Origin: a virus
Taxonomy: Duplodnaviria; Heunggongvirae; Uroviricota; Caudoviricetes
Reading direction: 5' to 3' (one strand)
Length of the DNA: 14,286 nt
Virus record (IMG/VR): IMGVR_UViG_2711768074_000014
A program made the position numbers and the translations under genes. The notes beneath the pieces are model-generated. The model ran no database searches, was not told the DNA's origin, and saw only the letters and a program-made list of their open reading frames with translations. Below, piece by piece: positions 2,793 to 13,452 of the stretch. How positions within the stretch are numbered: position 1 is the stretch's first letter; every line of letters starts with the position of its first letter.

Positions 2793-3956
2793 TTACGCCT
2801 TCTTTATATCCTCCATAATTCCACAGTGGGACATATTTGGGACATTATCACCAAAAATGTCGTCTATTTTCCTTGCATGCTCTGTCAAATGATTAGGCGC
2901 AAGGTGAGCATACCTACGAACCATTTCTATGGACTCCCATCCGCCCATTTCCTGAAGCACAGATAATGGGACGCCTGACTGGATCAGCCAGCTTGCCCAG
3001 GTGTGTCTGAGGTCATGGAAACGGAAATCTTCAATTCCTGCACGACGACAAGCTGATAGCCATGATGTCTTGCTGTCGATGCGCATCTTCCTGACCGCAG
3101 GCGTTGATGTTCCATCTGCTCGCTTAGCCGCCTTGGTATGTACAAACACCCATTTGTGATGCTTGCCTATTTGATCACGCAACACTTTACAGGCGGTATC
3201 GTTCAGCGCCACACCAATGGCGCGGTTTGATTTGCTCTCTTCTGGATTCACCCAGGCAACTCGTCGCTGCATGTCGATTTGTTGCCATTCCAGATTTATG
3301 ATGTTCGACTTTCTCAGACCAGTTGCCAGCGCAAACTTGACGACAGATTTCAGTGGTTCGGGGCACTCATCAATAAGGCGTTTTGCTTCCTCCTTTTCCA
3401 GCCATCTGACTCGCTTGTTTCTGACCGCTGGTATCTTGATGACAGGCGCTTTTTCCAGCCACTTCCAGTCGCGTTCTGCAGCACGGAGAATGGCCTTTAT
3501 CATGGCAAGATGCTTTGCCTTTGTCTGAGTTGATACTGGCTTTGGTTCATAAACAGGCGGTTCTTTACCTTTCCTGATGGCGGCCTGAACTTTCTGTTTC
3601 CATATTTCTTTCGTCTTTCTGTTATGCATTCTGCTTACAGCAGAGTAAATCTTTGCCTCCGAGATATCTTTAAGCCTTATACCCTCAAAATGTTCAAGCC
3701 AGAACTCAATCCGGCTTTTATCTGAATCGAGAGATTTTTTATCAGCTTTTTCCTCAAGCCATCTTAGGCAGGCCTCTTCAAAAGTGACATCAGGTAAATC
3801 CCCTAGCTTTTCTACTCGCCAGAGTTCTGCTTTTCGCTTGTCGTGCAACTCCTGAGCTTGCCGCTTGTCCTTTGTGCCAAGAGATTCCTTAATTCGTTTC
3901 CCGCCCGGGAGCGAATACGAGGCATACCATATTTCATTTCTGCGGAAGAGTGACAT
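2793..3956 (-). CDS. int: Phage tyrosine integrase (387 aa), argU-site (DLP12 IntD-like) type
   Basis: C-terminal catalytic region ...[42 protein letters not shown]... carries the R..H-x-x-R...Y signature of tyrosine recombinases. Adjacent and antiparallel to the tRNA. Confidence 0.9.
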
Positions 3957-6757: not shown

Positions 6758-6806
6758 TTTGCTGCTCCTCATCATATCGACCCTGCAAGGTCGGTTGGTT
6801 TCTCCA

Positions 6807-6893
6807 CAAAACAGAGAAGAACACCTGCGGTGGCAGCCGCCCGGATGGATTGGGTTATGAGCCCGTCGTCCGGTGATGCTCTTCTCTGTTTTG
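6807..6893. other. Long hairpin: perfect 14-bp inverted repeat CAAAACAGAGAAGA / TCTTCTCTGTTTTG around a 59-nt GC-rich loop
   Basis: Arms at 6807..6820 and 6880..6893 are exact reverse complements. The region has open frames on both strands, consistent with GC-rich non-coding structured RNA or DNA. Confidence 0.5.
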
Positions 6894-6942
6894 CAAAAAA
6901 GGACGGTACCAGCCGGAAGCAAGGGTACAAACTGGTACCGCC
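6894..6942 (-). terminator. Candidate intrinsic terminator on the minus strand, upstream of the early-left operon
   Basis: Inverted repeat CGGTACCAG (6904..6912) / CTGGTACCG (6932..6940) with flanking G:C pairs. On the minus strand it is followed by UCC-UUUUUU (complement of the A6 run at 6895..6900). Confidence 0.45.
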
Positions 6943-7159
6943 AGGACTACACACAGCATAAAGTTGTGGTGCCGGGTGCCTCCCGGTGCCTGGCGAAGGT
7001 TGCACACCAGGCGGGTGGGTATCCACAGAAGGTCGACTGTCAGCCTCAACCTTAACCCGCGTGCGCTGAGCCGCATTCACCACAACGCTAAGGATTCTCT
7101 CTGGTTGAAAATACTTAGCTGTTATGTGCCTGCTTTTAGCCACATCAGGCGAGGTGGAC

Positions 7160-7227
7160 CTGGTTATTCCCCAACAACAAGGATTCGGTTAATCTGGATA
7201 TCCCCAACAACAATAAGAGTATTCAAT
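7160..7227 (+). repeat. Two tandem ~34-bp direct repeats sharing a perfect 13-bp core TCCCCAACAACAA
   Basis: Unit 1 7160..7193 CTGGTTATTCCCCAACAACAAGGATTCGGTTAAT; unit 2 7194..7227 CTGGATATCCCCAACAACAATAAGAGTATTCAAT. They end right at the candidate start codons of the orphan gene. Confidence 0.7.
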
Positions 7228-7251
7228 GTGATCGCTGAATTAACGGCAGCA

Positions 7252-7743
7252 ATGACGGCTATTCGTGAAACAGCCCAGATTGCAAAACTAATGAACGAGG
7301 CAAAAACTCAAGCTGAAGTAAATGCGGCTATTGGTGAGCTGAACTCAAAGCTTGCGTCTATTCAGCGCGAATGCGTGTCTCTCGTTGAACTGGTGGGCTC
7401 TTATCAAGAAATAAATGCTTCTCTCAAAGCTAAAATTGCAGAATTCGAAAACTTTGAGGCTCAGACGGAAGGCTATATCCTTAACCAACTTGAGTCGGGT
7501 ACTTTTGTATACTCGAAGGAGGTAATCGTGAACGGTGGCAGCATAACCATGCATCTTTGCCCAAAATGTTTTGGACAAAAGATAGTATCGATACTTCAAC
7601 CATTCCCGGTTAGCGAAGATGAGCTTTTTCATAAAAGCAGGTGCCTCCACTGTGAAAATAAGTTTCTGATGAATAAAAATCCGGATTACGTATCGCCTCC
7701 ATCCATTGAGGAGTTGTCCAGAAAACTTAACGGCAATCTGTAG
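7252..7743 (+). CDS. Orphan protein (~163 aa): N-terminal coiled coil plus C-terminal C4 zinc ribbon (CPKC-x26-CLHC)
   Basis: AT-rich ORF on the opposite strand to both flanking operons. N-terminus MTAIRETAQIAKLMNEAKTQAEVNAAIGELNSKLASIQRECVSLVELVGSYQEINASLKAKIAEFENFEAQ is heptad-like; C-terminus carries MHLCPKCFGQ...SRCLHCENKF. Followed by an intrinsic terminator. Start uncertain: ATG 7252 has a weak SD, GTG 7228 is the alternative; the in-frame extension back to 6964 is not protein-like. Confidence 0.6.
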   Translation: MTAIRETAQIAKLMNEAKTQAEVNAAIGELNSKLASIQRECVSLVELVGSYQEINASLKAKIAEFENFEAQTEGYILNQLESGTFVYSKEVIVNGGSITMHLCPKCFGQKIVSILQPFPVSEDELFHKSRCLHCENKFLMNKNPDYVSPPSIEELSRKLNGNL

Positions 7744-7782
7744 ATTACTACTGTTGTGGATATCCAGATTGTTAAAGAGCTA

Positions 7783-7806
7783 AGCGTCCTGTAGGGCGCT
7801 TTTTTG
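7783..7806 (+). terminator. Rho-independent terminator downstream of the orphan gene
   Basis: AGCGTCC-tgta-GGGCGCT, a 7-bp stem with one G:U pair and a 4-nt loop, followed by TTTTTT(G). Confidence 0.7.
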
Positions 7807-7888
7807 TTGCTAACGAATCATCCTGGACTTCATATGCCCCAGGCGGCTACTTCGTGGGCGTCCTGCCTGTTCGTTATCTTTGATATAA

Positions 7889-7917
7889 AATCTAACTTAA
7901 CTTAGTTATCATGACAA
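7889..7917 (-). promoter_or_regulatory. Candidate leftward early promoter (PL-like) with embedded operator-like CTTAG motifs
   Basis: On the minus strand: -35 TTGTCA (7917..7912), 17-nt spacer, -10 TAGATT (7894..7889). The spacer and flanks contain ACTTAACTTAGTTA, and CTTAG recurs at about 7950 and 7965, the same motif seen in the cI/cro intergenic region. Confidence 0.4.
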
Positions 7918-7970: not shown

Positions 7971-8597
7971 TTAGAGTTCGTATTGAACTCCTTTGACTAC
8001 ACCAATGATAAGGCAATTACCATTGATAGGGATGTTGGGATACCGAGGATTTAATGGCACTAAAAACTTTTGAGGGCCATCGATGACTAATTTTTTTACT
8101 GTAGCTTCGTTTGTTCCATCAAGTCGAGCGATGACTATTTTTCCATGACGAGGTTCTGCATCTGGATCTACAATCACTGTTGCGCCTTCTGGTATTGTTG
8201 GGAGGCCATTAGGGTTAGTCATGGAGTCACCTTTAACCTCTAATGCAAATGAGTTATCACCAACCTTTAATGATGTATCTACCCACTTGTCCACTTCACT
8301 AAACACTTCTGCTGCCCTGCACTCAGTAAACTGCCCAGCCTGAACCCACGATATTACAGGAACTCTGCGCATGTTTGTGACGAGTTTGCCTTCAAACTCA
8401 GCACCGTAAAGAATGTAATCTATTGACGTATTGAAGAACTTCGCTAATTTCGAAAGTGCCTCCCCGCCAGGGGTATTGATGTCTTTCTCCCAGTACCCCA
8501 CAGCAACGTCGCTTACTCCACAAAATTTACCCAATTCTTTCTGGGACGTTCTGGTAACTCTTCTCAGAGCTTTTATACGCTGACCAACCGTTTCCAT
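7971..8597 (-). CDS. cI: CI-type prophage repressor (208 aa): N-terminal XRE-like HTH plus C-terminal S24 (LexA-like) peptidase domain
   Basis: N-terminus METVGQRIKALRRVTRTSQKELGKFCGVSDVAVGYWEKD is an HTH; C-terminus ...ALEVKGDSMTNPNG...GATVIVDP...HGKIVIARL...ATVKKL has the GDSM serine and a downstream lysine. Divergent from cro. Confidence 0.88.
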   Translation of the reverse strand: METVGQRIKALRRVTRTSQKELGKFCGVSDVAVGYWEKDINTPGGEALSKLAKFFNTSIDYILYGAEFEGKLVTNMRRVPVISWVQAGQFTECRAAEVFSEVDKWVDTSLKVGDNSFALEVKGDSMTNPNGLPTIPEGATVIVDPDAEPRHGKIVIARLDGTNEATVKKLVIDGPQKFLVPLNPRYPNIPINGNCLIIGVVKGVQYEL

Positions 8598-8694
8598 AGG
8601 AGCACCATTTCTTTAATCGCTAAGTAATCTTAGTTTTTATTGACCAAAGATAGATTTGTAATTAGCATCTAACAAAACTTAGTTTGGAGGGCGT
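8598..8694. promoter_or_regulatory. Immunity-region operator/promoter (OR with PR, and probably PRM)
   Basis: Inverted half-sites CTAAG-taat-CTTAG (8620..8633), and further CTTAG/CTAAC motifs at 8661..8685. Rightward promoter candidate TTGACC (8640..8645), 17-nt spacer, TAGCAT (8663..8668). GGAGG lies 4 nt before the cro ATG. Confidence 0.6.
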
Positions 8695-12642: not shown

Positions 12643-13248
12643 ATGAATAATCTGATGGTCATTGATGGTATTGAAGTTCGTCGTGATGCTTATGGGCGTT
12701 ACAGCCTGAACGATCTGCATCGCGCAGCAGTAGCATCTGGTGCAAATGCCAGAACCAAGGAGCCGGGAAAGTTTCTTTCCAGCCAACAAACTGTTGAACT
12801 TGTTCATGAATTGACCAACACCCAGAATTTGGGTGTTGACCCGGTGAGTGTGATTCATGGGGGAAATGAACGGGGAACGTATGTCTGCAAGGAACTGGTG
12901 TATGCCTATGCAATGTGGATCAGCCCGTCATTCCATCTGAAGGTGATCCGTACTTTCGATATGGTAACCAGCGCACCGGAAAAATTATCCGGACAGGCTG
13001 CTGACAAGATGCAGGCTGGCGTGATCCTGCTGGACTTTATGCGCCGGGAGTTAAACCTGTCTAACTCTTCAGTGCTTGGTGCCTGTCAGAAACTCCAGGA
13101 GGCTGTTGGCTTACCGAATCTGGCACCGCGCTATGCCATTGATGCTCCTGCTGATGCACACGATGGCTCAAGTCGCCCGACACTGTCACTGAGTGCACTG
13201 CTGAAACAGTATGGTATACGCCTGACGGCTAATCAGGCATATCACTAG
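12643..13248 (+). CDS. KilA-N domain protein (201 aa)
   Basis: ATG 12643 with GAGGAG upstream. N-terminus MNNLMVIDGIEVRRDAYGRYSLNDLHRAAVASGANARTKEPGKFL matches the KilA-N pattern. Confidence 0.65.
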   Translation: MNNLMVIDGIEVRRDAYGRYSLNDLHRAAVASGANARTKEPGKFLSSQQTVELVHELTNTQNLGVDPVSVIHGGNERGTYVCKELVYAYAMWISPSFHLKVIRTFDMVTSAPEKLSGQAADKMQAGVILLDFMRRELNLSNSSVLGACQKLQEAVGLPNLAPRYAIDAPADAHDGSSRPTLSLSALLKQYGIRLTANQAYH

Positions 13249-13452
13249 ATGGTGAAACTGGGGATCGTCGAGCAGCGCGAACGATACAGCCGTACAGCGA
13301 TTAACAACATCAAAAAATTCTGGTCGCTGACAGCGAAAGGTTGCATGTTCGGCAAGAACATCACCAGTCCCGCAAATCCGCGCGAGACACAGCCGCATTT
13401 CTTCGAATCCCGATTCCCTGAGCTGTTAAAGCTGCTCGATACCGTTCATTGA
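13249..13452 (+). CDS. Small hypothetical protein (67 aa)
   Basis: ATG directly after the upstream stop and ending where the next gene's SD begins. No recognisable SD or domain. Confidence 0.3.
   Translation: MVKLGIVEQRERYSRTAINNIKKFWSLTAKGCMFGKNITSPANPRETQPHFFESRFPELLKLLDTVH

Follow-up and report, generated by a model that had tools for sequence, protein, structure and literature searches.

Background

Rip1 (ring-interacting pore 1) is a prophage-borne anti-phage protein, a single polypeptide that serves as its own sensor and its own effector (Patel et al., Nature 651:1060 (2026), as summarised in PMC13434031). It was discovered in a Pseudomonas aeruginosa prophage, where its gene lies between those of the small and the large terminase and where lysogens are protected; Rip1 alone is not toxic, and the reported deletion and expression experiments show defence (PMC13434031). 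Escapers pointed to the portal protein in Pseudomonas phages and to the small terminase in Escherichia coli phages, and cryo-electron microscopy showed 12 Rip1 molecules around an 11-mer ring of small terminase (PMC13434031). The C-terminal half of Rip1 touches the ring, and an amphipathic helix makes up the N-terminal part; a pore is present in the assembly, which frees dye from liposomes and perforates cells (PMC13434031). Homologues are widespread in Proteobacteria and chiefly prophage-borne (PMC13434031), and Rip1 is listed as a small terminase sensor in PMC13601566 as well. Here, we describe a gene on the + strand of the virus record IMGVR_UViG_2711768074_000014 (Caudoviricetes), which probably encodes a divergent member of this family. 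In the following, the window is the whole stretch of DNA that was analysed, 14,286 nucleotides in length.

Two further systems are comparable, one in its logic and one in its genomic niche. RAZR (PD-T7-4; Zhang et al., Nature 651:1051 (2026), PMC13017515) is likewise a ring-activated small zinc-finger immune protein: it is inert until oligomerised around large phage-protein rings such as the portal (PMC13017515). It differs in architecture and output, as an N-terminal zinc finger is combined with a C-terminal HEPN RNase and RNA is cleaved. No similarity of the window protein to RAZR was found with PADLOC or in a profile search of the PDB, and membership in RAZR/PD-T7-4 was rejected: there is no PADLOC match and no DUF4145 in Pfam, and 171 residues are too short.

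SieB of lambda and P22, which brings about abortive superinfection exclusion, occupies an analogous genomic niche and has no sequence relationship to the window protein. The sieB gene reads rightward from within the leftward early operon, is expressed in the lysogen and aborts the development of superinfecting phages at a late stage. Its product is an integral membrane protein; the window protein, in contrast, is without a hydrophobic segment. Since there is also no Pfam or PHROG match to SieB, membership was rejected, and the niche alone is analogous.

Results and discussion

Assignment to the Rip1 family

The open reading frame (ORF) in question is:

7228..7743, + strand: rip1-like gene with GTG start and TAG stop, 171 codons (RefSeq coordinates, conserved N-terminus)

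A profile of 35 homologues, compared with all PDB sequences, gave one strong match: chain 9oox_L, Rip1, with E=2.4e-20 and an alignment that is nearly full length (query 5-152 versus chain 15-160). The single window sequence still matched 9oox with E=2.7e-7. This entry, released 2026-02-04, bears the title 'Escherichia phage HK446 Rip1 in complex with the Enterobacteria phage T6 small terminase'. A Foldseek search of the PDB with an AlphaFold2 model of the window protein agreed with this result, as the only significant matches were 9oox_L (E=4e-7) and 9oox_M (E=7e-7), with prob 1.00, template modelling (TM) values of 0.55/0.71 and 28% identity. Among the PHROGs, the window protein matched phrog_1244 ('unknown function') end to end with E=9e-60; the same family was matched end to end by HK446_037 (E=2e-53), by HkaP of HK620 (8e-51) and by gp30 of JBD30 (3e-61). 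The profile of 35 homologues reached 5.5e-30 against HkaP and 7.2e-23 against JBD30 gp30. Pairwise identities among the window protein, HK446 Rip1, HkaP and JBD30 gp30 are between 27% and 31%; thus, the window protein is about as distant from each characterised protein as these are from each other. All four have in common the succession V-Y, CxxC, S/T-I-L-Q, CxxC, and in the two experimentally studied Rip1 lineages it reads VY, CxxC, SILQ(P), CxxC.

Two further properties of Rip1 recur at this locus. The Rip1 fold, in which a compact C-terminal beta domain comes after a long N-terminal helix, is predicted for the window protein. Like Rip1, it is encoded by a stand-alone gene, namely a single gene on the + strand which has its own terminator and neighbours on the - strand, and the same holds in seven other phage contexts. 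Searches with Pfam, NCBIfam and PADLOC found no significant match for the protein, the output being confined to coiled-coil noise and to ECs_2282_CxxC with E=0.12; note that the PADLOC release is from 2023, is older than Rip1 and misses HK446 Rip1 and JBD30 gp30 too.

Sequence, predicted fold and conserved motifs taken together make it probable that the ORF encodes a divergent member of the Rip1 family, and its likeliest function, as judged by homology, would be Rip1-type abortive defence. It is thus not a new kind of system or mechanism; the defence family has already been described. The initial annotation of this region, made from the letters alone, had been unable to assign the gene to any family and had proposed an undescribed exclusion, defence or regulatory function. 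A family can now be named, with a structure (PDB 9oox) and a published mechanism (Patel et al. 2026, via PMC13434031). Defence cargo in a sieB-like position is in agreement with the homology to Rip1; the word 'undescribed' is not, given that the mechanism has been published.

A direct comparison with HK446 Rip1 (HK446_037) and the gp30-type Rip1 of JBD30 shows how far the likeness goes. The alignment is full-length, the sizes are similar (164 versus 171 residues), and the build is the same, with a long N-terminal helix in front of a beta domain that carries the VY/SILQP motifs and two CxxC knuckles. In each case a single gene of a temperate phage lies opposite to the lytic genes, in HK446 also inside the pL operon. 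The differences concern sequence and location: identity is only 27-29%, and the C-terminal tail of the window protein (residues 151-171) is longer and variable. The window gene lies just downstream of pL by the repressor, whereas that of HK446 lies between N and cIII and that of the Pseudomonas phages between terS and terL. Moreover, unlike both, the window gene is bracketed by a conserved 26-nt inverted repeat.

Predicted architecture of the protein

Based on an alignment of the 35 homologues, AlphaFold2 gave a model with a mean predicted local distance difference test value (pLDDT) of 90.3. It comprises two helices (4-24 and 28-79), then a beta domain (84-150) and, at the end, a short helix. 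The parts of the protein are:

7228..7467, + strand: N-terminal helical region, codons 1-80 (helices 4-24 and 28-79, pLDDT 75-96), moderately amphipathic
7468..7677, + strand: beta-rich C-terminal domain with C4 zinc ribbon, codons 81-150 (strands within 84-150, pLDDT above 90; conserved residues; Foldseek match to 9oox)
7558-7560, 7567-7569, 7642-7644 and 7651-7653, + strand: zinc-ribbon cysteines C111, C114, C139 and C142
7678..7740, + strand: variable C-terminal tail, codons 151-171 (pLDDT drops to 79 and 44 in the last blocks)

By homology to Rip1, codons 1-80 would be the putative pore-forming part. The hydrophobic moment is 0.27-0.44 over residues 1-54, and nowhere is the sequence hydrophobic enough for a transmembrane helix; these values would be compatible with an amphipathic, pore-forming helix. 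Codons 81-150, which also carry the conserved VY...SILQP motif, are the putative ring-contacting part on the same grounds. The four cysteines follow the pattern CxxC-N24-CxxC and are invariant across the 35 homologues. Together with V94-Y95 and I122-L123, they are also invariant among the window protein, HK446 Rip1, HkaP, JBD30 gp30 and four subfamily members; the pairs V94-Y95 and I122-L123 do not vary in the 35 members of the subfamily either.

A coiled coil and a C4 zinc ribbon had been proposed by the initial annotation. In the model the N-terminal half is helical, and the four cysteines lie in two CxxC knuckles. An alternative would be a zinc-ribbon regulator of transcription or translation, either of the DksA/TraR type or resembling CT398/HP0958, which combine a coiled coil with a zinc ribbon; the protein had been called loosely DksA/TraR-like, albeit with different cysteine spacing. 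That it is such a regulator is disfavoured and extremely improbable. The comparison with DksA/TraR was not borne out by a Pfam match to that or any family, nor by a structural match, and membership in the DksA/TraR C4 zinc-finger family was rejected for this reason.

Conservation was also compared region by region in the alignment. The N-terminal helical half is the best conserved region of the subfamily; the least conserved segments are the tail 151-171 and the loop 126-138 between the knuckles. The latter finding bears on an alternative in which the Rip1 fold is retained and put to a different use: the trigger might be another one, e.g. a recombinase ring, a connector or a tail hub, or the protein might block packaging by sequestration instead of forming a pore. 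Hypervariability of the loop and the tail is what one expects of a target-binding surface in an arms race, and identity to the tested Rip1 members is only 27-29%. Triggers already differ within the family, being the portal in one group of phages and the small terminase in the other (PMC13434031), and RAZR couples ring sensing to a quite different effector (PMC13017515). However, it is the N-terminal helical half, the pore part in Rip1, which is best conserved and which aligns with HK446 Rip1; this argues that the effector has been retained. We consider a changed trigger or output unlikely and prefer Rip1-type pore defence.

The gene, its start and its terminator

The protein is identical to RefSeq WP_000559922.1, a 'hypothetical protein', and the RefSeq span is exactly 7228-7743. 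The initial annotation had placed the start at the ATG at 7252, which gave 163 residues. The GTG at 7228 is in frame and 24 nt upstream of this ATG. We regard it as the real start and the protein as 171 residues long, because the conserved MIAELSAAM begins all 35 homologues (40-75% identity) at the position equivalent to 7228, because the Citrobacter and O157:H7 alleles are likewise GTG-initiated at the same point, because a Shine-Dalgarno-like element precedes it, and because RefSeq agrees. The elements flanking the coding sequence are:

7215..7219, + strand: Shine-Dalgarno-like AAGAG, 8 nt before the GTG, read from the sequence
7782..7805, + strand: intrinsic terminator of the rip1-like gene, AAGCGTCC-TGTA-GGGCGCTT followed by TTTTTT

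In the Citrobacter allele, an equivalent purine-rich element precedes the GTG. The end of the ORF at the TAG (7743) and its orientation had been read correctly: it lies on the + strand, and the neighbours on both sides, i.e. the genes on the yfdP side and the repressor at 7971-8597, are on the - strand.

The ratio of nonsynonymous to synonymous substitution rates (dN/dS) is 0.14 in comparison with the O157:H7 allele, which is 94.6% identical; against the Citrobacter allele it is 0.14 too, with synonymous sites that are saturated. The ORF is under purifying selection. In addition, a profile search at E<=1e-3 retrieved 2776 representatives of 50%-identity clusters. Because of the low dN/dS value and these matches, ORF 7228-7743 is a real gene.

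A terminator of its own had been proposed at 7783..7806; a hairpin and T-run were indeed found, at 7782-7805. The hairpin (7782-7801) is rich in G+C, the T-run occupies 7800-7805, and related viral contigs keep a hairpin at this position with compensating changes. In the leftward direction, AGCTCTTT takes the place of a T-run after the hairpin; the hairpin should therefore stop rightward transcripts only. A promoter search found no sigma-70 consensus promoter upstream of the ORF. Inspection of the conserved flank by eye gives the weak TTCCCC-17-TAATCT as the best candidate, and one variant among the viral contigs has TATAAT at this place; we do not claim a promoter here. The gene had further been described as more AT-rich than its flanks. 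With a G+C content of 42.8% this is true of the left flank (52.9%), and it is not true of the right side, where the intergenic region has 42.3% and cI has 43.5%.

Distribution and genomic context of the relatives

The gene was found at >=90% nucleotide identity in 650 of 5426 complete E. coli genomes (~12%), O157:H7 included, and every record listed for these genomes calls the product a 'hypothetical protein'. A tblastn search of phage genomes identified HK446 (HK446_037), HK620 (hkaP), HK629/HK630 and the Mu-like Pseudomonas phages DMS3, JBD30 (gp30), JBD69, MP38 and D3112 (orf25).

HkaP (AAK28864) is the best-scoring named phage relative that was compared: it has 28% identity, belongs to the same PHROG and is encoded antisense within pL, between cIII and N. 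In 2001 it was annotated as a 'putative superinfection exclusion protein', a name derived from position only. To our knowledge, HkaP has not been the subject of an experiment, and we found no published paper on hkaP or on the PhiR29/PhiR49 phages.

The positions of the relatives differ widely. HK446 and HK620 have the gene in a sieB-like position inside pL, where it reads against the cIII side and N that flank it. In JBD30 (L007, 2501-2995) it is antisense between the gene of a DUF1804/helix-turn-helix (HTH) protein and that of a 550-residue putative large terminase, and in Arsenophonus nasoniae (L013, 4001-4489) antisense between lysis genes and terminase. An Edwardsiella prophage of the N type has it between recombination genes and N, a Citrobacter prophage of the cI type between xis and the S24 repressor, and O157:H7 next to the repressor of a RacR-type prophage. 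The last three correspond to what the initial annotation had suggested looking for, namely homologues in the early or immunity regions of unrelated prophages. In all contexts examined, the gene stands alone and reads against the lytic genes around it; what these contexts share is its antisense position within a lytic operon. The terminase genes adjoining it in JBD30 and Arsenophonus encode known Rip1 triggers, whereas in enterobacterial lambdoid phages the gene is located in the early-left/immunity region instead.

Proximity to terminase genes in JBD30-type and Arsenophonus phages could also mean that the protein serves the prophage itself, by binding the prophage's own terminase or portal ring and thereby timing lysis or packaging, with no role in defence. 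That the Rip1 family is nearly always phage-borne is compatible with such a factor. Against such a role, the gene always reads counter to the late or early lytic operons and is followed by a terminator of its own, as is usual for a lysogen-expressed moron, and in the window, Citrobacter and O157 prophages it lies beside the repressor, far from the packaging genes. Unrelated genes replace it in the sister phages SfV, SfIV, mEp460 and 689R6, so that it is dispensable for the phage life cycle, and the experiments on Rip1 cited above show defence. A function for the phage's own use is, in our view, very unlikely, and a defence role is preferred.

Setting in the prophage

The left 2.7 kb of the window are chromosomal, with a fimH-like sfm adhesin gene (290-1297), sfmF, fimZ (- strand) and a tRNA-Arg gene (~2701-2777). 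The integrase gene intD (2793-3956, - strand) begins right after the latter, which corresponds to a DLP12-type attachment site. The lambdoid prophage continues on the - strand with yfdT, yfdR, yfdQ and yfdP, followed by the rip1-like gene (+) and the repressor gene (-). To the right of the repressor, the + strand encodes cro, ymfL, an O-like gene, PerC, Dam, RusA, KilA-N (a pseudogene) and DUF968. The elements to the right of the rip1-like gene are:

7971..8597, - strand: cI/LexA-family repressor (HTH_3 and Peptidase_S24), right-hand neighbour
7889..7917, - strand: putative pL, TTGTCA-17-TAGATT, overlapped by the operator-like CTAACTTAACTTAGTT (7892-7907; single left operator, OL)
7769..7780, - strand: GCTCTTTAACAA, downstream of putative pL; the only match in the window even with 2 mismatches

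The motif CTAASN4CTTAGTT occurs in the window in three exact copies (7892-7907, 8620-8635, 8669-8684), where 0.07 are expected; these are probably the operators of this cI-type repressor. The copies at 8620 and 8669 (right operator, OR) lie between cI and cro and flank pR, TTGACC-17-TAGCAT (8640-8668). Since the third copy covers a leftward promoter-like site, pL would lie to the right of the ORF, and the ORF would be antisense inside the pL unit. DNA to the right of 7875 is immunity-specific, since this is where the sequence of PhiR29_1, a phage whose cI differs, departs from that of the window. The initial annotation had positioned the gene between the early-left operon and cI. This is imprecise: it does adjoin cI, and the operator motifs place it antisense inside the pL unit, with pL to its right.

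The sequence GCTCTTTAACAA agrees letter for letter with the core of boxA, the antitermination element of the E. coli rrn operons. This boxA-like element is invariant as CCAGATTGTTAAAGA in 60 related contigs. In leftward order, the hairpin (7801-7782) comes first, then GCTCTTTAACAA and then a small CUGGAUAUCCA palindrome. In view of the boxA match, the conserved right flank seems to serve the pL transcript as a leader element; as a lead, the region of GCTCTTTAACAA may be a nutL-like leader of the pL operon. Neither a second boxA (the nutR equivalent) nor an N gene was found in the window.

Directly downstream of the position of the rip1-like gene on the leftward transcript, the segment 6893-7116 (- strand) matches the Rfam small RNA STnc100 over its full length (model 1-206) with 40.3 bits (gathering 47) and E=1e-6. 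It overlaps the frameshifted hypothetical ORF 6772-7083 of RefSeq; what is located here may therefore be an RNA gene and not the remains of a protein gene.

Proposed mechanism and significance

If the protein works like Rip1, the following course of events is conceivable. A protein of the Rip1 type, ~165 residues long, would be harmless until a superinfecting phage makes ring proteins (small terminase, portal) late in infection. The zinc-ribbon C-terminal domains of about 12 molecules would then dock round the phage ring, and docking would gather the N-terminal amphipathic helices into a membrane pore. The cell would be permeabilised before phage assembly is completed, and infection would abort. 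At this locus, the gene would be a moron that is expressed in the lysogen, ends in its own terminator and lies antisense within the early-left unit of pL. During prophage induction, leftward transcription from pL would run against the gene, which may help to spare the phage's own development. For this locus we infer expression, trigger, pore formation and antisense effect.

The assignment would give a name and a testable mechanism to a protein which occurs in about 12% of complete E. coli genomes. It would extend Rip1 pore defence to a deep branch across the Enterobacterales, with Escherichia, Salmonella, Citrobacter, Klebsiella, Edwardsiella and Arsenophonus. Because variability concentrates in the inter-knuckle loop and the tail, this branch should be useful for studying the evolution of target specificity. 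A practical relevance might be the prediction of phage susceptibility of lysogens, e.g. in phage therapy or typing. The interest lies in the annotation, the breadth of the family and the cassette-like locus; the mechanism is not new.

A cassette-like slot with an inverted repeat

The rip1-like gene is bracketed exactly by a 26-nt inverted repeat, each arm of which contains a near-palindrome centred on GATATC:

7191..7216, no strand: left arm of the inverted repeat, AATCTGGATATCCCCAACAACAATAA
7745..7770, no strand: right arm of the inverted repeat, TTACTACTGTTGTGGATATCCAGATT, 85% complementary to the left arm
7168-7180 and 7201-7213: direct repeat TCCCCAACAACAA, the second copy within the left arm

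In comparison with phage 689R6, homology ends at 7211 and resumes at 7764; both points are inside the arms of the repeat. Arms were also found at other loci (L004, 2793-2813 and 3470-3487; L008, 3964-3985 and 4536-4553; L019-L098), and they accompany the gene into the Rac-type prophage of O157:H7. The left arm is kept in front of highly dissimilar alleles and also of unrelated cargo. Judged by eye, the right arm is variable, yet in most variants it is largely complementary to the left arm. Alleles with only 63% identity in their coding sequences hardly differ in the ~70 nt before the start. In the minimum free energy and centroid folds predicted for the RNA of 7150-7830 the arms pair, which any repeat of this kind would be expected to do.

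A scan of viral contigs with a 19-mer of the left arm yielded 80 loci, and in 60 of them the right-hand motif CCAGATTGTTAAAGA followed within 2.5 kb. At 40 of these 60 loci the cargo was a rip1 allele with 45-100% identity to the window protein; at the other 20 it was a protein of phrog_6315 or phrog_5286. Members of phrog_6315 (L020, L026, L030, L054, L076) have ~150 residues and, by eye, two apparent hydrophobic segments, and are 29-51% identical to each other. Those of phrog_5286 (L037, L085, L004 2828-3262) are soluble and have 144-148 residues. Both alternate with rip1 in the same slot and orientation. Sister phages with the same flanks carry other cargo as well: orf33 in SfV and an HTH protein in mEp460. 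The slot of SfIV and 689R6 contains a gene for 144 residues, the 689R6 copy of which belongs to phrog_5286; 689R6 has in addition a gene for 68 residues. For phrog_6315 and phrog_5286 no significant Pfam match was obtained, and the single phrog_5286 member that was scanned gave no PADLOC match. An identification of the cargo with hydrophobic segments as SieB was rejected: it has no Pfam support, and the proteins are phrog_6315. By position, phrog_6315 and phrog_5286 are candidate exclusion or defence genes.

The repeat may be a cassette or recombination junction, an operator pair, a promoter or untranslated-region module, or a long-range RNA stem. It is a tentative and rather doubtful idea that SfV/DLP12/Rac-type lambdoid prophages possess a dedicated slot for exchangeable cargo, bracketed by AATCTGGATATCCCCAACAAC ... 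GTTGnGGATATCCAGATT and located downstream of pL and boxA, and that a functional repeat makes it a new defence-cassette architecture. Such an architecture would follow if the repeat served cassette exchange, or formed a long-range RNA stem by which the antisense cargo is either regulated or kept looped out of the pL transcript. If this were true, phrog_6315 and phrog_5286 would be predicted new anti-phage genes.

Signs of decay are visible in this prophage and its relatives. KilA-N has an internal stop (~12643-13452), the first leftward ORF (6772-7083) is frameshifted, and in strain FDAARGOS_1059 (L001, 1182-5057) the integrase gene is split by an insertion of IS679 (IS66 family). The rip1-like gene stays intact in copies in which the neighbouring prophage has decayed.
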